Assembly (NCBI RefSeq): GCF_054482595.1
Contig: NZ_CM137008.1
Reading direction: 5' to 3' (one strand)
DNA: 64,000 nt
The position numbers and the translations under genes were made by a program. The notes beneath the pieces were generated by a model. That model had not been told where the DNA came from. It did no database searches and was given only the letters and a program-made list of their open reading frames with translations. Below are positions 16,057 through 31,752 of the stretch, one piece after another. Numbering within the stretch: position 1 is the stretch's first letter; every line of letters starts with the position of its first letter.

Positions 16057-16172
16057 TAATTGTCGCGAAACTGTCTGGATTGTGAGCAAAGGCGCAGGAA
16101 TTCAGACACTCTCACTTATCACTTCACGGAATGAGGGTTACCATACCCGGATTGCATTGACAGGAGATGTCC

Positions 16173-17216
16173 ATGAGCGAGAACTCGATTCGTTTGACCC
16201 AATACAGCCACGGAGCTGGTTGCGGCTGTAAAATTTCCCCAAAAGTGTTGGAAACCATCCTGCACAGTGAGCAGGCGAAGTTTGTTGATCCGAATTTGCT
16301 TGTGGGTAATGAAACCCGCGACGATGCGGCGGTGTACGATCTGGGCAATGGCACCAGCGTTATCAGTACTACCGACTTCTTTATGCCGATCGTTGATAAT
16401 CCTTTCGATTTTGGCCGCATTGCGGCGACTAACGCCATCAGCGATATCTTCGCGATGGGGGGCAAACCGATTATGGCGATTGCGATCCTCGGCTGGCCGA
16501 TTAACAAACTTTCCCCAGAAATTGCCCGCGAAGTAACCGAAGGTGGACGCTATGCATGCCGTCAGGCGGGTATTGCGCTGGCTGGCGGTCACTCCATCGA
16601 TGCGCCGGAGCCGATTTTTGGTCTGGCGGTAACGGGGATCGTACCGACCGAGCGGGTGAAGAAAAACAGTACCGCACAAGCCGGATGCAAACTGTTCCTG
16701 ACGAAACCGCTGGGGATCGGCGTTCTTACCACGGCTGAGAAAAAATCACTGCTGAAACCAGAACATCAGGGACTGGCGACGGAAGTGATGTGCCGGATGA
16801 ACATCGCAGGCGCGTCCTTTGCCAACATTGAAGGCGTAAAAGCGATGACCGACGTAACGGGCTTTGGCCTGCTGGGCCATTTGAGCGAAATGTGTCAGGG
16901 CGCAGGTGTGCAGGCGCGTGTTGACTATGACGCGATCCCGAAATTGCCGGGGGTTGAAGAGTACATTAAGTTGGGTGCAGTGCCTGGCGGCACCGAACGT
17001 AACTTTGCCAGCTACGGTCATCTGATGGGTGAAATGCCGCGTGAAGTGCGCGATTTGCTGTGCGATCCGCAAACTTCTGGCGGTTTGCTGCTGGCGGTCA
17101 TGCCGGAAGCAGAAAATGAGGTTAAAGCTACAGCCGCCGAGTTTGGCATTGAACTGACGGCGATTGGCGAACTGGTGCCAGCGCGCGGCGGTCGTGCCAT
17201 GGTTGAGATCCGTTAA
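16173..17216 (+). CDS. selD: Selenide, water dikinase (selenophosphate synthetase)
   Basis: [12 protein letters not shown]-terminal active-site loop and AIR-synthase-like fold; start at MSENSIRL (347 aa). Confidence 0.92.
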
Positions 17217-22044: not shown

Positions 22045-22317
22045 GTGAGTCGAGCATTGTTCGCCGTAGTATTAGCATTTCCATTAATTGCACTGGCTAA
22101 CCCGCATTATCGTCCGGACGTGGAGGTAAACGTACCGCCAGAAGTGTTCAGTTCAGGCGGGCAGTCAGCGCAGCCCTGTACTCAGTGCTGCGTTTATCAG
22201 GATAAAAATTATTCTGAAGGGGCGGTAATTAAAGCCGAAGGAATACTGCTGCAATGCCAGCGGGATGACAAAACCCTTAGCACTAATCCGCTGGTCTGGC
22301 GGCGCGTAAAGCCATAA
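22045..22317 (+). CDS. ynjH: Small secreted DUF1496 protein YnjH
   Basis: 90-aa ORF with N-terminal signal peptide (MSRALFAVVLAFPLIALA) and four Cys; 3' end overlaps nudG by 35 bp. Confidence 0.75.
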   Translation: MSRALFAVVLAFPLIALANPHYRPDVEVNVPPEVFSSGGQSAQPCTQCCVYQDKNYSEGAVIKAEGILLQCQRDDKTLSTNPLVWRRVKP

Positions 22318-22690
22318 ACGCCTCTAATAATGGAATGTCAGCAGGAGCCAGCGGATATTGCAGCGCCTCTTCAGGTGAGCACCAGACCAGCGCCTGATGT
22401 TCATGTGCCTGTAACGTCCCGTGGAAGTCGGGTACGTGCCAGGCATGAAGATGGATAATCCGCCCCGAAACTTCTCGCTGATGGCTGGCAACATACTCAC
22501 CCACAGTTGCTTCGATGCCCAATTCTTCGTTTAACTCACGCACCAGCGCCTGCTGCTGGCTTTCATCCAGCTCGACTTTACCACCGGCAAACTCCCATAA
22601 TCCCGCCTGATCGCTCTGGGCGGGGCGTTGCGCGAGTAAAATTTTGCCATCACGTTCAATGATGGCGGCAACAACTTCAATCATTTTCAT
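22283..22690 (-). CDS. nudG: Nudix hydrolase NudG (CTP/5-methyl-dCTP pyrophosphohydrolase)
   Basis: 135-aa ORF with Nudix box GGKVELDESQQQALVRELNEELGI. Confidence 0.9.
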   Translation of the reverse strand: MKMIEVVAAIIERDGKILLAQRPAQSDQAGLWEFAGGKVELDESQQQALVRELNEELGIEATVGEYVASHQREVSGRIIHLHAWHVPDFHGTLQAHEHQALVWCSPEEALQYPLAPADIPLLEAFMALRAARPAD

Positions 22691-22770: not shown

Positions 22771-23397
22771 GTGCCTGTGCTAGACCGCCATCTTCATCCC
22801 CGGATTAAACCGTTGTTGCATCAGTGCGTGCGGGTTCTTGATAAACCGGGCATTACGCCAGATGGTTTAACATTAGTGGGATTTGCCATCGGCGTGCTGG
22901 CTCTGCCGTTTCTGGCTCTGGGCTGGTATCTGGCGGCGCTTGTCGTCATTTTGTTGAATCGTCTGCTTGATGGTCTGGATGGCGCACTGGCGCGGCGCAG
23001 AGGGCTTACCGACGCGGGCGGCTTTCTTGATATTTCTCTCGATTTTCTCTTTTACGCGCTGGTGCCGTTTGGTTTTATTCTTGCTGCACCGGAGCAAAAT
23101 GCGCTGGCAGGCGGCTGGTTGTTGTTTGCGTTTATCGGTACGGGCAGCAGTTTTCTCGCCTTTGCTGCGCTGGCGGCGAAACATCAGATTGATAATCCCG
23201 GTTATGCGCATAAATCGTTTTATTATCTGGGGGGATTAACCGAAGGCACAGAAACGATCTTACTGTTTGTGCTGGGATGTTTATTCCCTGCATGGTTTGC
23301 GTGGTTTGCGTGGATCTTCGGTGCGTTGTGCTGGATGACGACCTTTACGCGGGTGTGGAGTGGGTATCTGACGCTGAAGTCGCTCCAGCGTCAGTAA
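22771..23397 (+). CDS. ynjF: CDP-alcohol phosphatidyltransferase-family membrane protein YnjF (GTG start; the true start may be the second GTG at 22777)
   Basis: Polytopic membrane ORF with the CDP-OH phosphotransferase motif region DGxxAR (LDGLDGALARRRGLTDAGG); no ATG at the 5' end. Confidence 0.8.
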   Translation: MPVLDRHLHPRIKPLLHQCVRVLDKPGITPDGLTLVGFAIGVLALPFLALGWYLAALVVILLNRLLDGLDGALARRRGLTDAGGFLDISLDFLFYALVPFGFILAAPEQNALAGGWLLFAFIGTGSSFLAFAALAAKHQIDNPGYAHKSFYYLGGLTEGTETILLFVLGCLFPAWFAWFAWIFGALCWMTTFTRVWSGYLTLKSLQRQ

Positions 23398-23405
23398 TTG
23401 CAATG

Positions 23406-24713
23406 TTATTTGCTGCTGTCCGGGCCGCGTTCACCGGTTGCTACCGGATTTTTTGGATCGCTGCTCCATTCGTACCAGCCGCCGTCGTAAACGGAGACGT
23501 TATTCCAGCCCATTGCTCGTGCGTACATAAAGGTTTCGGACGCGCGCCAGCCGGTGCCGCAGTAGAATGAAACTTGCTGATCTGGTTTGATATTCCATGC
23601 TTTCCACATAGCGGTAATATCATCGGCGCTACGCATGGTGCCATCCGGGTTATGGAAATCTTCCATATGCGTCGAGTCGCTACCAGCGTGTCCCCAACGT
23701 GCTCCGGCTATTTCACCTTTTGGTTTAATATAGCTGTAACCGCTGGTCGTACCGATAAACTCCGGCCACGAACGAATGCTCACCAGCGATGCATCCTGGC
23801 GATGCAGCAGTCCACGGGCCTGTTCCATATCGAGCATCAACTGCGGTTGTGCCGGGATCTTCACGCCGAAATCCGGTTCCGCTTTCACTTTCGGTGGCGT
23901 TCCTCGCTCAACAGGCAGTCCCGCGTCGGACCAGGTTTGCCAGCCGCCATCCAGCAGGCGCACATCTTTCACGCCTGCATACAGCATAATCTGCGCCACA
24001 CGCGCTGCAGCGTATACGTCACGCCCGTACAGAATGACCGTGGTGTCATGGCGAATGCCGTGTTTTGCCAGCATCGCTTTTAGTTGTTCATCAGAAACTT
24101 TGTTCCACAGCGGTTCGCTTTCCACTTCGTTGGTATCGATGTAGTCAGCACCGGGAATATGGCTGATAAGGTAAAGCTTAGGAGCGCCCCAGGCCGCTTC
24201 AATGACTTTCCAGTCTCCGGCAGGTTTCGCCGTAACCTCTTTACCTTGTTGCAGGTCGTGCAGCCATTGCGGATAAACCAGCTGCTCAAAGTGCGGCAGT
24301 TTTTGTAGACGGGAAGGTTCGCTTAGCGCGTCACTCAGAATGGAGATATGCGTAAAACCTGCTTTTTGCAGTCGCGTTTTGACGGCGTCGACATCTTTGC
24401 CATTACCGTACAGCGCCACCGGGGCATCGGCTTTCAGGTTATGTTGCTTGATCCACGCGTTGAGCTGTTCGGTGCTCATTTTGTCAAGCCAGCTAGCAGA
24501 GAGGTTTAAGGCGGCAGGTTCATGACCAGAAGGGCCATTTAAGGTTTGTGGCCAGCCGTTATAAAACGCGCTGGGGCGAGTATCTATCGCTTTGCCATTT
24601 TGTTGTTGAAGCTGGTCAAGTGTAAGAGGCTTCGCCAGTTCAGCGGCCCACGAAGAAGCGCAAGCCAGCCCTAAAGCCATTGCCAGCGCGGTCATTTGAG
24701 AAACACGTTTCAT
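23406..24713 (-). CDS. ynjE: Periplasmic triple-rhodanese thiosulfate sulfurtransferase YnjE
   Basis: Signal peptide MKRVSQMTALAMALGLACASSWA and a C-terminal rhodanese active site CGTGWRAS; start at MKRVSQ (435 aa). Confidence 0.88.
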   Translation of the reverse strand: MKRVSQMTALAMALGLACASSWAAELAKPLTLDQLQQQNGKAIDTRPSAFYNGWPQTLNGPSGHEPAALNLSASWLDKMSTEQLNAWIKQHNLKADAPVALYGNGKDVDAVKTRLQKAGFTHISILSDALSEPSRLQKLPHFEQLVYPQWLHDLQQGKEVTAKPAGDWKVIEAAWGAPKLYLISHIPGADYIDTNEVESEPLWNKVSDEQLKAMLAKHGIRHDTTVILYGRDVYAAARVAQIMLYAGVKDVRLLDGGWQTWSDAGLPVERGTPPKVKAEPDFGVKIPAQPQLMLDMEQARGLLHRQDASLVSIRSWPEFIGTTSGYSYIKPKGEIAGARWGHAGSDSTHMEDFHNPDGTMRSADDITAMWKAWNIKPDQQVSFYCGTGWRASETFMYARAMGWNNVSVYDGGWYEWSSDPKNPVATGERGPDSSK

Positions 24714-24779
24714 CGAAAATCCCGACATTGTAGTTTTGAGTGCGCCATTCTGAACTGACGCATTGAGAAAAACTTTGCG

Positions 24780-25433
24780 TTATCGCAGTTTGTTGTAATT
24801 TTCTGACCACTGAGCCATATCCAGAACAGAACTATCAGCAGGAACATCCTGGAGATCGTGCGTTACCTGAACGACGGGGATCGCCAGGGCGCGAACTTCG
24901 CTGAACACCCACTGGCGAAAATTATCGCGCAGAGCCACATCAAGACGGCTGAATGGCTCATCCAGTAGCAACGCTTTTGGCTGAGCGAGAAGGGCGCGAA
25001 GCAGAGCAACGCGCGCTCGCTGACCGCCAGACAAAGTGGCAGGATCCTGATGGAAAGCTCCGTCAAGGCCTGAACGCTCAAGTGCATCATTCACGGCATT
25101 ACGTCGGGCATTCCCCTTAAGTGTCGCCGGTAGCGCCAGCAGTAAATTTTGCCCGACACTGAACTGGTCAAATAACAGTGCATCCTGAAAAAGAATGCCA
25201 ATCTGACGCTGTGCGGTGGGTAGCATGTCAATCCGTTGCTCATTGAGCCATAGCTCACCTGTACAAGAAAACTGTCCGGCCAGTGCACCAATCATCCATG
25301 AAAACAGAGTGGATTTTCCACAGCCAGACGGCCCCATTAACGTGACAATGTCACCTTTATCCACCGTAAAGTTAACGTTTGTCAGCAAGCGGCTTTCTGG
25401 TAAACGTAGCGAAACATTTTTCACGCAGAGCAT
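24780..25433 (-). CDS. ynjD: ABC transporter ATP-binding protein YnjD
   Basis: Walker A GPSGCGKST, ABC signature LSGGQRARVAL, Walker B LLLDEPFS; start at MLCVKNVSL (217 aa), overlapping the ynjC stop. Confidence 0.88.
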   Translation of the reverse strand: MLCVKNVSLRLPESRLLTNVNFTVDKGDIVTLMGPSGCGKSTLFSWMIGALAGQFSCTGELWLNEQRIDMLPTAQRQIGILFQDALLFDQFSVGQNLLLALPATLKGNARRNAVNDALERSGLDGAFHQDPATLSGGQRARVALLRALLAQPKALLLDEPFSRLDVALRDNFRQWVFSEVRALAIPVVQVTHDLQDVPADSSVLDMAQWSENYNKLR

Positions 25434-26968
25434 TAGCGGAGTCCTTGTCTGACATAACCTACCCATTTTGCGACTAACGCGGTCAGGGCAAAAATAATAA
25501 GCGGTAATAGCAGTTGCCATAAAGCCTGGGCGGCGAGAATACCGTTGCTGCCGCCGCTGCTTAATGCCACCGCCTCAGTGGTGAGCGTCGGAAAACGCCC
25601 CGCGCCCAGCCACAGCGTCGGCATATACTGCGCAATACTGACTGAAAATCCCACTGCGAAGGCAATCAGCGTAGGGCGTAGCATAAACGGACATTTCACG
25701 TAAAAGAAGATTTTGACACGCGACCAGCCCAGCGTTTGCGCAATCAAAATTAACCGTGAATCAATGCGCTGCCAGGCGGGTTGCAGGATAAACAGCATCC
25801 ACGGTATTACCCACAGCAGATGCCCCCAGACCACCGCCGTCCAGCTCCCATCCAGGTTCAGCCAGAGCGCCAGCGTGTACTGGCCCGCCACCAGCGGCAG
25901 TGCCGGTAATAAAATGGGCAACCATAACCACAACTGGCGACGCTGTGGCCCCCATTCCAGCCACAGCAGTAACAGGAGCAAAGCGATGAATGTCGCCACC
26001 AGCCCCATTGTCAGGCTGTTGATGAGCGCTTCACTATTGATCGTTGATTGATCCGCGAGGATCGCCAGCAGAACCACACACAGCACACCGGTCAAGGGTA
26101 AAAAACTCGCCAGCGTAATGCCTGGCAATAAAGGCGTGGCAAGCTTGCGAACGCCATCTACGCGGGGAATAGTACGCCGCCAGCTACGCCATAGCAGATA
26201 GCCCAGCAAAACGTAGGCGGCGAGTAACAGCATCAGCAGCAGGCTGGCGAGTGCGCCTTTAATCTGTTGATCGGTATCGCCCTGGGTTAACCACTGCCAG
26301 CTAATTACCGCAAGCGTCGGTGGATTACCTGGCCCAAGAATAATCGCCACATCCACGACCGACAGCGACCAGGCAACAATCGCCAGCATCGCCATTGCAA
26401 GTGCAGGAGCAACGGAGGGCAACAGCAGCCAGTTCAAACATTGCCAACGGCTGTAACCCAGCGAATCCAGCACAATGACCTGCTGCAACAGCCGTTTTTC
26501 ACTCAATACCGCTGCTAAGATCCACAGCAGAAATGCGCTTTCTTTCACCGCCAGCGTGAAGCCCAGCCCAATACCCAATTTGTCCATTGGCGGAGTGAAA
26601 TACGGGAAATAGTCATAAAGCAGCCCTCCGTCAGCAAAGAGCAGAAGGGCGCTGGTGGCAAAAGCCACATGGGGAATGGCGAGCAGCCACGGCAGACGGG
26701 TGCACATACGCTGCCATTTCGGCCCAGGCCACAGCGCCACAATCACCAGCAGGGCAATCAACAACGCCCCGACCGCCGCGATGGTTGTCGACACCAGCGT
26801 TGCCAGTAATGCCTGCGGTAACTGTGGATCGGCAAATAACGCCTGCCAGTGTGTCAACGACAAAGCAGGCGATATCAGCGTGAGAGCTGCCGGGATCAGC
26901 GGTGCATAAATCACCGCCACCATCGCCCACAGCAAAAAGATTAATGCGTACCGTAACGGTGTAGCCAT
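25433..26968 (-). CDS. ynjC: ABC transporter permease YnjC (duplicated six-TM permease, fused type)
   Basis: About 511 aa, highly hydrophobic, two permease repeats as in ThiP/FbpB-type importers; start overlaps the ynjB 3' end by 28 bp. Confidence 0.85.
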   Translation of the reverse strand: MATPLRYALIFLLWAMVAVIYAPLIPAALTLISPALSLTHWQALFADPQLPQALLATLVSTTIAAVGALLIALLVIVALWPGPKWQRMCTRLPWLLAIPHVAFATSALLLFADGGLLYDYFPYFTPPMDKLGIGLGFTLAVKESAFLLWILAAVLSEKRLLQQVIVLDSLGYSRWQCLNWLLLPSVAPALAMAMLAIVAWSLSVVDVAIILGPGNPPTLAVISWQWLTQGDTDQQIKGALASLLLMLLLAAYVLLGYLLWRSWRRTIPRVDGVRKLATPLLPGITLASFLPLTGVLCVVLLAILADQSTINSEALINSLTMGLVATFIALLLLLLWLEWGPQRRQLWLWLPILLPALPLVAGQYTLALWLNLDGSWTAVVWGHLLWVIPWMLFILQPAWQRIDSRLILIAQTLGWSRVKIFFYVKCPFMLRPTLIAFAVGFSVSIAQYMPTLWLGAGRFPTLTTEAVALSSGGSNGILAAQALWQLLLPLIIFALTALVAKWVGYVRQGLR

Positions 26969-28107
26969 TCTTGTTCCAGCGCATTTACCCAACCTGCGTG
27001 CGGTTCAGCCAGTACTGGCGGCAGATCTTGAGGCATTCTTGATTGCAATGTTTCGCGCTGCCCATCAGGCAGTTTTTGCGGATCGAGAACAGAAGGATCG
27101 CCCCAGACAGCGGGATCTGCTTTACGCAATTGCGCATCGGGTGAGAGCAAGAAATTGGCAACTACCTTCGCCGCAGCACTGGCATTCGCGTTGGCAGGAA
27201 TGGTGACGAAATGCACGTTGCCAATCATCCCCTCGCGAAAGCCAAAACTGTAACTGCTTGCAGGCAAATCGCCGCTGGCGATTTTTTGCTGCGCATGCGC
27301 GGGGTTAAAGGTCAGCGACAGGCGCAATGTGCCGGATTTCAGCAGAGCATCCATCCGCGCGGGCGAAGGCGGGAAATCCTTTCCTTCGCGCCACAAATAC
27401 GGATGCAGCGCATCAAGATATTGCCACAAGGGAGCAGTGACACGGGCGAAAGTCGCATCGTCCGGCGCTTCTTTTAATGCGGCGGGATCGGGCGTCAGCA
27501 TAATCAGCAACTGTTCAAGAAACGCCGTGCCGGTAAAGTCCGGTGGGCGCGGATAGGTAACCGTGCCGGGATTGGCTTTAGCAAACTCCAGTAAGGCTTG
27601 CGGCGTTTGTGGTGGCTGTGGCGTAACATCGCGGCGGGCGATAAATGTCAGTTGTGCGCCCCCCCAGGGCGATTCAGCCCCTTCTGTAGGCACTGAAAAA
27701 TCTTCCCGCACCGGCAGCTGTGTGTCGACATAGCGCCAGTTGGGCAGAGTCTCTGCCCAGTCGGTTTGCAGTAAATTGGCCTCTTTTAAGGTGCGGAAGT
27801 TTTCGCCGTTCACCCAGAGCAGATCCACCGAGCCGCCCGTTTTACGTCCGGCAGCAGCTTCGGTCTGAATGCGCTTCACCGCGTCTGCGGCATCCGCCAG
27901 ACGAACAATCTTCAGGTTTATAGCGTAATGGGTTTTCATCTCGCCGCTCACCCAGTCGAGATAGCGGTTAATTGCGGTATCGCCGCCCCAGGCGTTAAAC
28001 CAGACAGTTTGCCCTTTGGCCTCATTATTAATTTCTTGCCAGTCACTGGCATGTGTTGCCAGAGAAAACAGCGAGAACAATCCCAGCAACCACCCACAAT
28101 GGCGCAT
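26941..28107 (-). CDS. ynjB: ABC transporter periplasmic substrate-binding protein YnjB
   Basis: 388-aa ORF with an N-terminal signal peptide (MRHCGWLLGLFSLFSLATHA) and a thiamine/iron/sulfate-type binding-protein fold by recollection. Confidence 0.85.
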   Translation of the reverse strand: MRHCGWLLGLFSLFSLATHASDWQEINNEAKGQTVWFNAWGGDTAINRYLDWVSGEMKTHYAINLKIVRLADAADAVKRIQTEAAAGRKTGGSVDLLWVNGENFRTLKEANLLQTDWAETLPNWRYVDTQLPVREDFSVPTEGAESPWGGAQLTFIARRDVTPQPPQTPQALLEFAKANPGTVTYPRPPDFTGTAFLEQLLIMLTPDPAALKEAPDDATFARVTAPLWQYLDALHPYLWREGKDFPPSPARMDALLKSGTLRLSLTFNPAHAQQKIASGDLPASSYSFGFREGMIGNVHFVTIPANANASAAAKVVANFLLSPDAQLRKADPAVWGDPSVLDPQKLPDGQRETLQSRMPQDLPPVLAEPHAGWVNALEQEWLHRYGTH

Positions 28108-28116
28108 CATCTCTCC

Positions 28117-28665
28117 TTAAGAACGTTTTTCCGGAATACGGCACAGCCCCTGAGCGGGAATGTCCATGGCAGAATTAAAACGGGCTGACAGATTTTGCAG
28201 GCCGATCAATGCCGTCAGTTCGGTGAGCGCCTGAGCGTCAAAATGCGCAGCCAGTCGGGTGCGCAGGGCATCATCGACCGTTGGCGGTGTGACGCTTGCG
28301 GCTTCGGCGTACTCCAGCGCCAGCCGTTCTTCATCGCTGAAGAGCGGGCTTTGCCGCCAGTCAGCCACTGCCAGCAGTTTATCGCTGCTGCCGGTGCGCT
28401 CGGCGACTTTCATACTGGTGATATCCACGCAAAACTCACACAGGCACATTTGCGCAATGCGCGCGCTGACAAGCGATCGTACTACCGGATCGAGCGGTGA
28501 GCGTTTGCGCTCCAGCCAGCCAACAAACATCGACACCAGATAAAAGATAAACGGGATCCGCCCCCACCAGCGAATGGGGCTTAGCACCTCGCCGTAATGG
28601 CGACGATGCAGCCACGCCTGCGGACGTAAAATGAAAGGAATTTTGCTAAGCGGCGGTAAACCCAT
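28117..28665 (-). CDS. ynjA: AhpD-like / carboxymuconolactone decarboxylase-family protein YnjA
   Basis: 182-aa ORF containing the Cys-rich core MCLCEFCVDITS typical of the AhpD-like fold; its stop overlaps the ydjZ region (ATGA junction at 28665). Confidence 0.8.
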   Translation of the reverse strand: MGLPPLSKIPFILRPQAWLHRRHYGEVLSPIRWWGRIPFIFYLVSMFVGWLERKRSPLDPVVRSLVSARIAQMCLCEFCVDITSMKVAERTGSSDKLLAVADWRQSPLFSDEERLALEYAEAASVTPPTVDDALRTRLAAHFDAQALTELTALIGLQNLSARFNSAMDIPAQGLCRIPEKRS

Positions 28666-29372
28666 CAGGCATTCCTCTTCTGGCGCTCAAGCCATATTTT
28701 CTTCGCCATAAAAATCACCACGCTCAGGGCAAACAGAATAAACAGTCCGGTGACAAACCAGAAGGTACCGCCTGTTAACATGCTGCCCGCCCAGGAATAA
28801 ACAATAGTCGCCGGTAACTGACCAAGCCCGGTGGCGATAAAAAACGAGCGAAAACGGATTGAAGTCAAACCGGCAGCATAGCTGATTGGATCGAAAGGGA
28901 CAAAAGGCAATAACCGACAGACCAGGATAGTGTGTTTGCCGTAGCGAGTGAAAAAGCCGTCCATACTGTCAAGTACGGTTTTGCCGGTTAATTTTTCCAC
29001 CACTTCGCGGCCCATCACTCTGGCGATAAAAAAGCACAGCGCCGCGCCGGCCATCGAACTGGTCCACGACAGCAAGCCGCCCCAGAGCGCGCCAAACAGC
29101 GACGCATTGGCAAAGGTGATCAAAAACGCAGGTAGCGGTGCAGCAATGGCCTGCAAAATCATCAACAAGAACGAGACAACTGCCGCCAGTGCGCCGTAAG
29201 ACTGAATAAAGCGTTCTATACCCTGTTGGTCCACGGCGGCAAACGCCGCAACGCTGCGATTGATAAACTCATGGACGCTGGGAAGCAGCGCCCATGCCAG
29301 CAGCATAGCGAACAACAGGATGATGAGGGTTATACGGTAGTACCAGATTTTTCGCGATTGCATCTTCATCAT
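28665..29372 (-). CDS. ydjZ: DedA/TVP38-family inner-membrane protein YdjZ
   Basis: 235-aa polytopic ORF with the DedA-family core (…RLLPFVPFDPISYAAGLT…). Confidence 0.85.
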   Translation of the reverse strand: MMKMQSRKIWYYRITLIILLFAMLLAWALLPSVHEFINRSVAAFAAVDQQGIERFIQSYGALAAVVSFLLMILQAIAAPLPAFLITFANASLFGALWGGLLSWTSSMAGAALCFFIARVMGREVVEKLTGKTVLDSMDGFFTRYGKHTILVCRLLPFVPFDPISYAAGLTSIRFRSFFIATGLGQLPATIVYSWAGSMLTGGTFWFVTGLFILFALSVVIFMAKKIWLERQKRNA

Positions 29373-29386
29373 CCTTTATCCTGGCT

Positions 29387-30064
29387 TTATTCGGTGATTT
29401 TAAAGGTAACCGTTGCCAGCGTGTTATCCGCCGGGAGAACCGAGGCATTGCCTTTGAATTTAACTTCACCTCGTTTTTCAACCGCACCATAAGTGTATGT
29501 TGCATTGCTGACGATGCCGACCGGGCAGCTATCCAGACACACCAGGCAACCCGTTTTCTTCTCTTCTGCTGCCGTTAAATTACCGCCAAAGCGCATGTCC
29601 AGTTTCTTGCCATTACTGTCAACAATCACTTCATCGAAGGAATACGTTTTTGCCGCCCCTTGCCAGTTGACCGAAATATCCAGTTTGCTGCCCGTGACAT
29701 GAGTCGTTTCTTTATTATCCATCGTCATGTTTTCGCCCGGCGTACCACCTGCCTCTTTCAGGGCTTCATAAAATGCTTTCGGGGTCGCATAACCCATAAA
29801 CAGCGATTTATGTCCGTTGGAGCCATCTTTAAACACAATACCGTGACGAGTGTCGTCGGTGAGGAAACGACCATTAATTTGCACCAGCATGGTTACCGTA
29901 TGGTTATTGGCATCGACGCGCAGCGGTTGGCTGTTCGAAAGTCCGTCGTATTCCACTTTTGCCGCCGCATTCTCTTTTTGATCACAGCCGCTAAGCCCAG
30001 CAACAGCCAGTAAGCAGAGTGCAGTCAGTCCTTTTTTCCATGACACTGAATAATGTTGCAACAT
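29387..30064 (-). CDS. ydjY: Periplasmic lipoprotein YdjY with a C-terminal CxxCxxxC motif
   Basis: Start placed at MLQHYSVSWKKGLTALCLLAVAGLSGC (lipobox LSGC, 225 aa); C-terminal CLVCLDSC metal-binding-like motif. Confidence 0.8.
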   Translation of the reverse strand: MLQHYSVSWKKGLTALCLLAVAGLSGCDQKENAAAKVEYDGLSNSQPLRVDANNHTVTMLVQINGRFLTDDTRHGIVFKDGSNGHKSLFMGYATPKAFYEALKEAGGTPGENMTMDNKETTHVTGSKLDISVNWQGAAKTYSFDEVIVDSNGKKLDMRFGGNLTAAEEKKTGCLVCLDSCPVGIVSNATYTYGAVEKRGEVKFKGNASVLPADNTLATVTFKITE

Positions 30065-30068
30065 CGTT

Positions 30069-30779
30069 CTATCCTTCATTTTTTGGGTGAGTAAGTGGGT
30101 TGCGGCGCGAAGCAGACAGATCCACATGTTTGTGTCGGGCGTAGAGTTTGGCGAGCTGGACGAGAATAAACAGCGCCAGGCCCGCCAGACAGAGTTGTAA
30201 AATAAAGCGCAGCGTAATGCCTTCATTGGCGAGATCGCTTGCCATCACGGTATAAATAACAATACCGGGCAGGGTCGTGAGTGCCGAAATAAGGATATAA
30301 GGCCAGAAGGCGATTGTGGTTAATCCGTAAGCGTAATTTTGAATATTGTAAGGAAACAACGGGATTAAGCGGGTCAGAATAAGAAAATCAATACCGTTAC
30401 GCGCAATGCCTTTTTCAATGGCCTGGAAGGTATGGCTATGGCCAACGTATTTCAGCAGTAAATCACGTCCCAGCCAGCGCGCCAGCAGGAATGAGCACGA
30501 GGAGGCCAGCGTAGCGGCAATTAATGAGAGTAGTGTCCCTAAGAGCGGGCCAAAAACTATTCCTCCCGCGATCACCAGTATGCTTCCTGGTAACAGAAAG
30601 AGGGTGGCAATAATGAATAACAGAATATAGAGGCTATAACCGAACAATCCGCTCTGGCGAATGAGTGTCTGTAAGTGGGGTAAATCGGTGAGCAGATCGA
30701 ATAAACCGAAAGCGTGGATAGCGTAAATGACCAGCGCAAAAATAAGACAGGCAAAAAGAAATTTACGCTCAGCGTTCAT
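30069..30779 (-). CDS. ydjX: DedA/TVP38-family inner-membrane protein YdjX
   Basis: Start placed at MNAERKFLFA (236 aa); paralogous to YdjZ (…RLIPLFPYNIQNYAYGLT… versus …RLLPFVPFDPISYAAGLT…). Confidence 0.85.
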   Translation of the reverse strand: MNAERKFLFACLIFALVIYAIHAFGLFDLLTDLPHLQTLIRQSGLFGYSLYILLFIIATLFLLPGSILVIAGGIVFGPLLGTLLSLIAATLASSCSFLLARWLGRDLLLKYVGHSHTFQAIEKGIARNGIDFLILTRLIPLFPYNIQNYAYGLTTIAFWPYILISALTTLPGIVIYTVMASDLANEGITLRFILQLCLAGLALFILVQLAKLYARHKHVDLSASRRNPLTHPKNEG

Positions 30780-30945
30780 CGTGGAGTTTCCTATATCAAA
30801 CTTGATAATAGAGAAGTGGTCAGACAACTAAAAACGCAGAGACGGTATAACAAAGGACGGCAGGCAACAAATCATTACTGACAGTTTGTTGATTTTTCTC
30901 AAGGTTAATTCTCCTGGCCCAGTTTGAGCCAGGAGAGCTGCTAAA

Positions 30946-31752
30946 TTAGCGGCGGAAGGTCGCCCAGACGGGGGCGTGATCGGACGGTTTTTCCATGCTG
31001 CGAATTTCATAGTCGATGCCGGTTTCTACGCAACATTCTGCCAGCGGTTGGCTGGCGAGCAGCAGGTCGATGCGCAGACCACGGTTATCGTCAAAACCTT
31101 TTGAGCGGTAATCAAACCATGAGAAACGATCTGCTGTTTGCGGATTCGCATGGCGGAAGGTATCGACCAACCCCCAGCTCATCAGTCTCTCCATCCATTC
31201 GCGTTCCTCCGGAAGGAAAGAACATTTTCCGGTACGCAGCCAGCGCTTACGGTTCTCTTCGCCAATGCCAATATCCAGGTCGCCAGGACTGATATTCATA
31301 TCGCCCATAATCAGCACCGGATTTTCACGCTTGAGTTCGGTTTCCAGGTAGTTTTGCAGGTTCTGATAAAACTGCGCTTTTGCCGGGAATTTTATCGGAT
31401 GGTCGCGGCTTTCACCCTGCGGGAAGTAACCGTTGATCACGGTGACATTACCCAGCGGTGAGGGGATTTCCGCCATAATAATCCGCCGCTGCGCCTCTTC
31501 GTCGTCACCGGGAAAGCCGCGACGCACGGCAATCGGCGTCTCTTTGGTCAGCAGCGCCACGCCATAATGGCCTTTCTGCCCGTGATAAAACACGTTGTAG
31601 CCGAGCTTCGCCACCTCTTCGAGCGGAAACATATCGTCATGAACTTTTGTCTCCTGCAGGCCAATCACATCCGGTTGGTGCTTTTCGACGATGGCTTCAA
31701 GCTGGTGGGGCCTGGCGCGCAGGCCGTTGATATTAAAAGAGACAAATTTCAT
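30946..31752 (-). CDS. xthA: Exodeoxyribonuclease III (AP endonuclease VI)
   Basis: Start at [14 protein letters not shown] (268 aa); EEP-family nuclease motifs (GLQETK, GDMNISP, SDHAPV). Confidence 0.93.

Follow-up and report, generated by a model that had tools for sequence, protein, structure and literature searches.

The genes ynjE and ynjF lie side by side in a 64,000-nt stretch of the Escherichia coli chromosome, hereafter called the window, whose positions serve as coordinates throughout. We propose, with moderate confidence, that both belong, in E. coli, to a gene set of the cell envelope conserved in Enterobacterales, which would serve anaerobic sulfur or selenium handling and in which ynjE would have a promoter of its own. 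The constant partners of ynjE, the gene of an exported rhodanese, encode a lipid-type transferase, a DedA membrane protein and a CxCxxC redox protein; anaerobic trafficking of sulfur or selenium is our best inference for the role. The locus as such is already known, since its genes, the structure of YnjE, its FNR control and its co-expression have all been published. Comparison adds a four-gene core, an ynjA gene that switches operons, a conserved non-canonical palindrome and product names that fit poorly. It narrows the question on an anaerobically induced, core-genome cluster of about ten genes and does not bring a new kind of system. The gene ynjF, on which there is essentially no literature, is now counted as part of it.

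The window is 100% identical to E. coli chromosomes, and several complete genomes carry an exact match to the 3.5 kb around ynjE and ynjF. Of 5426 complete E. coli genomes, 5414 have this stretch at a coverage of at least 80%, and it therefore belongs to the core genome. Gene coordinates were obtained by transferring the RefSeq annotation onto the window; those of ynjF, ynjE and the adjacent module, which includes an ATP-binding cassette (ABC) importer, are as follows.

22777-23397, plus strand: ynjF, coding sequence of 206 amino acids
23406-24713, minus strand: ynjE, coding sequence of 435 amino acids
24780-25433, minus strand: ynjD, ABC importer gene
25433-26968, minus strand: ynjC, fused double permease of the ABC importer
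26941-28107, minus strand: ynjB, binding protein of the ABC importer
28117-28665, minus strand: ynjA, AhpD-like protein of the CMD family with a conserved CxCxxC
28665-29372, minus strand: ydjZ, DedA/VTT membrane protein
29387-30064, minus strand: ydjY, lipoprotein
30069-30779, minus strand: ydjX, DedA/VTT membrane protein

ynjE belongs to a four-gene core

An alignment of the YnjE family was scanned over genomes, one per species, and the best 80 loci were kept, onto which the neighbouring E. coli genes were mapped by tblastn; the genera named are a lower bound. Synteny counts refer to the 57 loci among these 80 with YnjE at 69% identity or more.

In all 51 Enterobacteriaceae loci, ynjBCD directly precede ynjE on the same strand. 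The preliminary description of this DNA, made from its letters alone, had linked ynjE to the neighbouring module and named their co-conservation as a point to check; the link is borne out, the adjacency of ynjD and ynjE being kept in 51 of 51 sampled species of the family. Downstream, ynjF is convergent to ynjE in every one of the 54 loci with enough downstream sequence. Six loci have no ABC transporter (two of Hafnia, three of Edwardsiella and that of Enterobacillus), and these six keep a divergent DedA gene, ynjE, ynjF and an AhpD-like ynjA. The island of Hafnia paralvei (L040:9158-12863; also L047, L051-L053 and L056) consists of the divergent DedA gene and ynjE, then, on the opposite strand, ynjA overlapping ynjF. 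It sits between LysR/nuoA and aminotransferase/yfbR-like genes, an unrelated chromosomal site, and given this second location the four-gene unit may be mobile. A contig of Plesiomonas presents a third layout, in which ynjC, ynjD and ynjF form one strand block facing ynjE, with the ABC genes in the ynjF operon.

The gene ynjA occurs once per locus, within the ABC operon in 9 loci and immediately upstream of ynjF in 42, never in both positions; the four loci that lack it are incomplete contigs. In the second position, an overlap of 8-11 nt with ynjF was measured in 17 of 18 genera. By comparison, ydjY is found in only 4 species loci. We conclude that the best-conserved core is DedA with ynjE and ynjA-ynjF, and that the ABC transporter is an accessory at family level, to which Escherichia adds YdjY. 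The strongest partners of ynjE are ynjF, ynjA and the DedA gene, and the tie of ynjF to the system is stronger than had been assumed.

More distant homologues of ynjE, from Aeromonas, Photobacterium and Craterilacuibacter (47-56% identity), have no E. coli-type neighbours and keep their signal peptides. For YnjB, the homologue search gave relatives of at least 76% identity from the same genera among the matches listed.

In the YnjA family the C-x-C-x-x-C motif (QMCLCEFCVD) never varies; QGLC is found on the C-terminal side and a hydrophobic stretch, RWWGR.P..FWLVALFVG, on the N-terminal side. The family's best NCBIfam similarity, below the cut-off, is to a 'YciW-related (seleno)protein'. E. 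coli-type ynjA and the ynjF-linked copy share about 50-59% identity, against about 66-92% for YnjE and YnjF in the same genomes. The two types of YnjA seem to be separate lineages, one standing in for the other.

ynjE has a promoter of its own

Myers et al. (2013; PMC3688515) describe ydjXYZ-ynjABCD and ynjE as two separate units, each directly activated by FNR. At ynjE, the same work reports an FNR peak by chromatin immunoprecipitation (ChIP) in all four wild-type datasets, together with activated expression; the site is assigned to -41.5 and the published peak centres fall about 55-79 bp before the ATG. The sigma-70 ChIP peak of ynjE rises from 10.5 in aerobic to 609 in anaerobic cultures, and after conversion between genome versions we place the anaerobic peak at about 24738, some 25 bp before the ATG. 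Expression in aerobic relative to anaerobic cultures comes to 0.044 for ynjE, against 0.33 for ynjC and 0.28 for ynjD (PMC3688515). With such a step between ynjE and the genes just upstream, read-through alone is hard-pressed as an explanation.

We looked for the ynjE promoter by phylogenetic footprinting, aligning the upstream regions of 19 Enterobacteriaceae genera. Their ynjD-ynjE spacers measure 54-117 bp and are unconserved outside a palindrome and a -10-like block. In the window, the region upstream of ynjE is base-for-base identical to that of K-12. The elements are the following.

24775-24788, minus strand: palindrome CTGCGATAACGCAA, overlapping the ynjD stop codon TAA (24780-24782), from footprinting
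24747-24752, minus strand: -10-like hexamer CAGAAT, which most of the 19 genera keep in the form A[GAC]AAT
24714-24779, minus strand: ynjD-ynjE spacer of 66 bp, free of terminator-like structure by terminator scan and RNA folding
30889-30902, strand not assigned: near-consensus FNR box TTGATTTTTCTCAA upstream of ydjX, from a pattern search, with one mismatch

The palindrome, of the form yTGYG-N4-CRCAA, stands 73-76 bp before the ynjE ATG in all 19 aligned genera and in Hafnia. In the latter it keeps its place, at -73 to -76 of ynjE, with a divergent DedA gene upstream instead of ynjD. Because the palindrome recurs there without ynjD, the promoter belongs to ynjE. The -10-like element deviates in two of the 19 genera. 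The first base of CAGAAT lies 29.5 bp from the centre of the palindrome, as expected for a class II site at -41.5. From these elements we predict a transcription start near 24740, with a 5' untranslated region of about 27 nt, in agreement with the position of the sigma-70 peak.

We infer that the palindrome is a non-canonical class II FNR site of the ynjE promoter. Its sequence, CTGCG-ATAA-CGCAA, matches 5 of the 10 FNR consensus positions; it is the spacing to the -10-like hexamer, with a start that is itself predicted, that suits -41.5. A pattern search of the ynjD-ynjE spacer for a canonical FNR box with up to two mismatches found none. The conserved non-consensus bases may mark a deliberately weak FNR site or the action of a second regulator; a co-expression study calls the regulator of the module unknown (PMC7888660).

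The FNR box at 30889-30902 is the separate promoter of the ydjXYZ-ynjABCD operon. It is the same as the site given as TTGAGAAAAATCAA and placed at -60.5 of ydjX (PMC3688515). As a member of the FNR regulon, ynjE resembles this operon in being FNR-activated, adjacent on the same strand and co-expressed; it differs by its separate promoter, with a non-consensus palindrome at -41.5 as opposed to a near-consensus box at -60.5.

Three other readings of these elements were rejected. The palindrome is a poor terminator of ynjD: its stem has 4 bp, the fold is like that of shuffled sequences, and the T-run is unconserved while the palindrome is kept. A promoter found by consensus scan, TTCAGA-16-TACAAT (24754-24727), was set aside as the main promoter, its -10 being not conserved across genera whereas CAGAAT is. 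Nor is the palindrome a motif common to the yedE and yjiM promoters, as it is absent upstream of both and has few matches elsewhere in the loci.

The earlier suggestion that ynjE is co-transcribed with the seven genes before it survives in part. The shared strand and the gap of 66 bp, exactly 24714-24779, are as described; the minus-strand terminator scan of this spacer is empty, and its RNA fold is no better than that of shuffled sequences (z = -1.27). One paper treats ydjX to ynjE as a single eight-gene operon. The lack of a terminator leaves room for read-through from the ydjX promoter, even with the evidence for a dedicated ynjE promoter that binds FNR and sigma-70; of the counter-evidence named beforehand, a dedicated promoter with no read-through, only the first half is found. 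Altogether, ynjE forms a transcription unit in its own right; it shares its regulation with the ydjX operon and is probably in part co-transcribed with it.

Within the module, coding sequences overlap by 28 nt at ynjB/ynjC and by 1 nt at both ynjC/ynjD and ydjZ/ynjA. This suggests translational coupling, in contrast to the promoter-bearing 66-bp gap before ynjE.

YnjE is an exported rhodanese related to EanB

The signal peptide, three rhodanese domains and CGTGWRAS site noticed earlier in YnjE are all seen in its translation and in Pfam. Its N-terminus, MKRVSQMTALAMALGLACASSWA followed by AELAKP, reads as a Sec-type signal with an AxA-type cleavage site. Pfam finds PF00581 (Rhodanese) in three stretches, at 117.7 bits for a cut-off of 22.2. 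In the C-terminal domain, where the translation contains FYCGTGWRASE, the six-residue rhodanese active-site loop C385-G-T-G-W-R begins with the catalytic cysteine. In an alignment of 28 sequences of the family, C385, Y326, W389, R390 and E318 are invariant.

24645-24713, minus strand: signal peptide of ynjE, codons 1-23 (MKRVSQMTALAMALGLACASSWA), predicted cleavage before AELAKP
23538-23561, minus strand: active-site loop of YnjE, C385-G-T-G-W-R-A-S392, from the translation and the EanB alignment
23736-23738, minus strand: codon of YnjE Tyr326, from the EanB alignment

The structures 3IPO and 2WLR in the PDB are those of YnjE. The protein of E. coli K-12 (b1757; PDB 2WLR/2WLX/3IPO/3IPP) is the same as that of the window: the crystallised chains match residues 20-435 with E = 8.5e-287, and the constructs begin at residues 20-23. 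K-12 YnjE and the protein of this strain differ by L66P, T99A, D109G, L121F, E377D and K404N, and otherwise by nothing of substance.

YnjE is treated as periplasmic in the literature. An export signal is kept in every gammaproteobacterial homologue inspected; signal-like N-termini were seen in those of Hafnia, Edwardsiella, Plesiomonas, Aeromonas, Craterilacuibacter and Photobacterium. An in-frame ATG at 24726-24728, 15 nt before the annotated start of ynjE, would start the protein as MSGFSMKRV..., but it is not kept by Citrobacter, Klebsiella and other genera, and the annotated start at 24713 therefore stands.

After YnjE itself, its closest relatives in the PDB are 6KTV and 6H98, structures of EanB from Chlorobium limicola (E about 1e-88, 39% identity), an enzyme that makes ergothioneine anaerobically. 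Both are three-domain rhodanese-like proteins, alike over about 400 residues. In their alignment Cys412, Tyr353 and Arg417 of EanB, whose roles we take from PMC10903977, correspond to C385, Y326 and R390 of YnjE, and the FYCGTGWR loop is common to the two. Cys385 is the persulfide-carrying residue of YnjE. YnjE differs from EanB by its signal peptide and by the lack of an insertion of about 15 residues past the second domain; Tyr375 of EanB is a threonine in YnjE, at a position that varies across the family. The cytoplasmic location of EanB-type enzymes does not apply to YnjE, whose Sec-type signal peptide is conserved. The EanA/EgtD-type histidine trimethyltransferase gene with which EanB is paired is missing here: no methyltransferase is annotated in the 10 kb on either side, and the conserved neighbourhood of the 57 loci has none.

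We rejected YnjE as a true orthologue of EanB, because YnjE is no nearer to EanB than to dozens of other members of the family and the catalytic residues common to the two are family-wide. Since these residues are invariant in exported and cytoplasmic members alike, they are not diagnostic of EanB-like chemistry. The likeness to EanB points to a possible chemistry; it does not argue for ergothioneine synthesis by YnjE.

In NCBIfam, YnjE reaches no equivalog cut-off. Its RefSeq product name is 'thiosulfate sulfurtransferase', and that of K-12 'molybdopterin synthase sulfurtransferase'; both labels fit the evidence poorly.

YnjF and the junction of ynjE and ynjF

YnjF is an integral membrane protein of the PF01066 family (CDP-OH_P_transf), with 43.4 bits for a Pfam gathering score of 22. 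Its motif D-G-L-D-G-A-L-A-R-(x7)-G-x3-D-x3-D is intact and fits that of the family, D-G-x2-A-R-x7/8-G-x3-D-x3-D; the catalytic motif DGLDGALARRRGLTDAGGFLDISLD is invariant in 19 orthologues. YnjF shares this Pfam family and the complete catalytic aspartate motif with cytidine diphosphate (CDP)-alcohol phosphatidyltransferases such as the phosphatidylinositol-phosphate and archaetidylinositol-phosphate synthases, and its best NCBIfam similarity is to members that transfer inositol phosphate. It differs from the characterised enzymes by its 7-residue motif spacer and by scores far under all NCBIfam equivalog cut-offs (63 for 180, 43 for 170 and 34 for 200, archaetidylinositol-phosphate synthase being the best). 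By NCBIfam, YnjF is not assignable to a subfamily of known substrate (PgsA, PssA, phosphatidylinositol-phosphate synthase, Pcs and others).

The outermost GTG of the ynjF open reading frame is at 22771, and the annotated start is the GTG at 22777; the latter is kept in orthologues as M-L-D-R-H-L-H-P. ynjF had been described as divergent from ynjE. The two genes are in fact convergent, ending at 23397 on the plus and 23406 on the minus strand, with 8 bp between the stops; it is from nudG that ynjF diverges. An RNA sequencing survey of MG1655 counts ynjE-ynjF among the convergent pairs with overlapping transcripts, the overlap being seen in half or more of its 58 samples. Two features mark the junction.

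23368-23394, strand not assigned: perfect 12-bp inverted repeat CTGACGCTGAAG-TCG-CTCCAGCGTCAG in the last ynjF codons
23434-23454, plus strand: terminator-like hairpin with T-run, CCGGTTGCTACCGG ATTTTTT, from the terminator scan

Folded as the minus strand, the inverted repeat reaches -22.9 kcal/mol (z = -3.0), and it is likely a 3'-end hairpin shared by ynjE and ynjF. It is not a canonical intrinsic terminator, because no U-tract follows it on the ynjE strand. The second hairpin lies 37 nt past the ynjF stop, within the 3' coding end of ynjE, and this position is consistent with the published 3'-overlapping transcription of the two genes. Upstream of the ynjA'-ynjF operon of other genomes, no conserved FNR-like site was found.

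Thiosulfate fits YnjE and YnjB poorly

From the proximity of a sulfurtransferase to a binding-protein-dependent importer, it had been suggested that the cluster handles a compound such as thiosulfate. The data do not favour this substrate, and a wider sulfur or selenium role is plausible. YnjE without its signal shows no apparent thiosulfate:glutathione activity, and the protein is described as poor with thiosulfate and 3-mercaptopyruvate (PMC10215317). Expressed in a rhodanese-free strain, the signal-less form gave a small rise of cellular sulfane sulfur from thiosulfate, with overlapping error bars (PMC10215317). PspE and GlpE, the single-domain thiosulfate sulfurtransferases of E. coli, have the rhodanese fold and catalytic cysteine of YnjE, and PspE is also periplasmic; they turn over thiosulfate with glutathione in the assay in which YnjE is without apparent activity (PMC10215317), and YnjE has two additional, inactive rhodanese domains.

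In Pfam, YnjB belongs to the SBP_bac_8 and SBP_bac_1 families only, and in NCBIfam to subfamily NF008633; a search of the PDB by sequence found no relative. The fold of its AlphaFold model (predicted local distance difference test score of 83.8) matches PotD, PhnS, MctA, TbpA and FbpA with template-modelling (TM) scores of 0.5-0.62; the ligands of these proteins are polyamine, 2-aminoethylphosphonate, metal-citrate, thiamine and iron. No sulfate/thiosulfate-binding protein of the Sbp/CysP type is among the top 50 fold matches. YnjD and YnjC resemble CysA and CysT in NCBIfam generically, below the cut-off and among many other families.

Possible links to sulfur and selenium carriers, and a working model

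The genes ydjXYZ-ynjABCD, ynjE, yedEF and yjiLM form an uncharacterised co-expression module that is active anaerobically (PMC7888660). By family, YedE belongs to Sulf_transp, YedF to TusA and YtiA, whose gene follows yjiL, to Se_S_carrier. These sulfur/selenium carrier genes, YeeE/YedE-YedF and YjiLM-YtiA, share their co-expression in E. coli with ynjE and with the ydjX operon and differ from them by their location elsewhere in the chromosome. In Photobacterium alginatilyticum (L081:9890-15576), a signal-bearing ynjE homologue has downstream of it, on its own strand, a class-V aminotransferase gene (cysteine-desulfurase-like) and then genes for a YjiM-like HGD-D protein, a YjiL-like BcrAD/BadFG ATPase, an Se_S_carrier and a DsrE-like protein. 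The YjiM-like and YjiL-like proteins have about 43% identity. This layout mirrors the co-expression of ynjE with yjiLM in E. coli.

We now propose a scheme for the whole set. Under anoxia, YnjE would be exported by Sec, and its Cys385 would carry sulfane sulfur, possibly selenium, as a persulfide or perselenide. It could then pass the sulfur or selenium to an acceptor at the membrane, either a small molecule or one linked to a lipid, with YnjBCD importing the substrate or the product and YnjA performing thiol redox chemistry. YnjF and DedA would supply or move the membrane-bound partner, and the system may work alongside the co-expressed genes of the sulfur/selenium carriers, YedEF and YjiLM-YtiA. 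We do not regard it as a dedicated thiosulfate importer plus a rhodanese.

A more specific version, which we consider doubtful, would make the invariant DedA/YnjE/YnjA/YnjF quartet an undescribed anaerobic envelope pathway, fed by YnjBCD in Enterobacteriaceae. There, YnjF would attach a CDP-activated precursor to a membrane carrier, DedA would flip it and YnjE, as an EanB-type persulfide enzyme, would sulfurise or selenise it in the periplasm; alternatively, YnjE would capture extracellular S(0)/Se(0) for import. Either form would link to YedEF and YjiLM-YtiA, and if it is true the pathway would ultimately be tied to the supply of selenoproteins or of a thio-cofactor.

Several points weigh against an envelope set for sulfur or selenium handling with its own ynjE promoter. 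Substrates have been assigned by experiment to none of these proteins. The palindrome departs from TTGAT-N4-ATCAA as TGYG/CRCA, and these departures are themselves conserved in 19 genera and Hafnia; the transcription start of ynjE is likewise a predicted one. ynjF is missing from the FNR- and O2-responsive gene lists of K-12 and is not named in the published co-expression module, so that its link to the system is one of synteny alone. Co-occurrence was scored starting from ynjE only. Among 22 distant loci, P. alginatilyticum is the single one with the YjiLM/Se_S_carrier neighbourhood, a hint and not a pattern. Finally, the only physiological role published for YnjE lies in the cytoplasm, where it is reported to relay sulfur from IscS to MoaD/MoeB.

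Alternative explanations

This published role leads to an alternative in which YnjE acts in the cytoplasm, relaying sulfur from IscS to MoaD/MoeB for the molybdenum cofactor of anaerobic respiration, its proximity to ynjBCD and ynjF being incidental. We judge it unlikely. The K-12 annotation as 'molybdopterin synthase sulfurtransferase' and published biochemistry agree with it, FNR activation would suit the demand for molybdoenzymes, and two distant loci lend it some colour: a MoCF_biosynth-domain gene is found near the Aeromonas homologue and the cysteine-desulfurase-like gene adjoins that of Photobacterium. Against this, the Sec signal peptide recurs in all the gammaproteobacterial homologues inspected, in keeping with the periplasmic location accepted in the literature, and the biochemistry was done with signal-less constructs (PMC10215317). 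Moreover, a ynjE deletion mutant has normal chlorate and hydroxylaminopurine phenotypes, so that any part of YnjE in carrying sulfur for the cofactor 'may be limited', and strict synteny with membrane- and periplasm-related genes in at least 20 genera is not expected of an incidental neighbour. Another proposal is, in our view, improbable: YnjE would be an EanB-type former of C-S bonds, in which the Cys385 persulfide and Tyr326 thiolate a periplasmic heterocycle or lipid head group, YnjF makes the acceptor from a CDP-activated precursor and DedA flips it. EanB is the closest solved relative past YnjE itself, with three catalytic residues aligned, its discoverers, who cite YnjE, suggest that EanB-like enzymes may sulfurise heterocycles, and the unbroken association of YnjE, YnjF, DedA and YnjA calls for a membrane-linked partner. 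The same residues, however, are invariant across a family of 31-53% identity, and Tyr375 of EanB, a threonine here, is family-variable. The locus lacks a histidine methyltransferase gene, no sulfur-containing lipid or heterocycle is known to depend on these genes, and ynjF and ynjE are not co-regulated in K-12.

We find it very unlikely that ynjE is the eighth gene of a transcript from ydjX to ynjE, with YnjBCD importing a thiosulfate-like sulfur oxyanion and YnjE acting as a thiosulfate sulfurtransferase. The common strand, the 66-bp gap, the terminator-free spacer, the eight-gene operon of one paper, the RefSeq product name and the Sulf_transp family of the co-expressed YedE are compatible with it. 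Yet ynjE has a dedicated, conserved and FNR-bound promoter, its product is poor or inactive with thiosulfate in the published assays, YnjB is unlike Sbp/CysP in family and model, and Hafniaceae carry ynjE without the transporter. Least of all do we believe that the adjacency is mere inertia among close genomes, between genes of unrelated function. Most of the sampled loci do come from one family, and the distant homologues of 47-56% identity lack all the partners, but the same genes are found in three layouts and also at another place in the chromosome (types I and II of Enterobacteriaceae, the island of Hafniaceae, Plesiomonas), ynjA alternates between two operons and is never in both or in neither, and the genes are co-expressed. 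Our preference remains for the conserved envelope set that handles sulfur or selenium anaerobically, under a separate ynjE promoter.

Neighbouring genes and other observations

Beyond the genes considered above, the annotation places the following next to them.

22045-22317, plus strand: ynjH
22283-22690, minus strand: nudG
30946-31752, minus strand: xthA

The gene of selenophosphate synthetase, selD, is at 16167-17216, about 5.5 kb from ynjF. Its proximity to a cluster with putative selenium/sulfur carriers among its co-expression partners may be a coincidence. A protein cluster of 574 amino acids, P0271 (10 members), combines the CMD and solute-binding domains; it is probably an in-frame fusion call of YnjA and YnjB over their 9-nt gap, caused in some E. 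coli assemblies by an altered stop codon or an error in sequencing. On the far side of ynjF, nudG and ynjH overlap tail-to-tail by 35 nt (22283-22317), and this pair, like ynjE-ynjF, is among the convergent overlapping-transcript pairs of the RNA sequencing survey.

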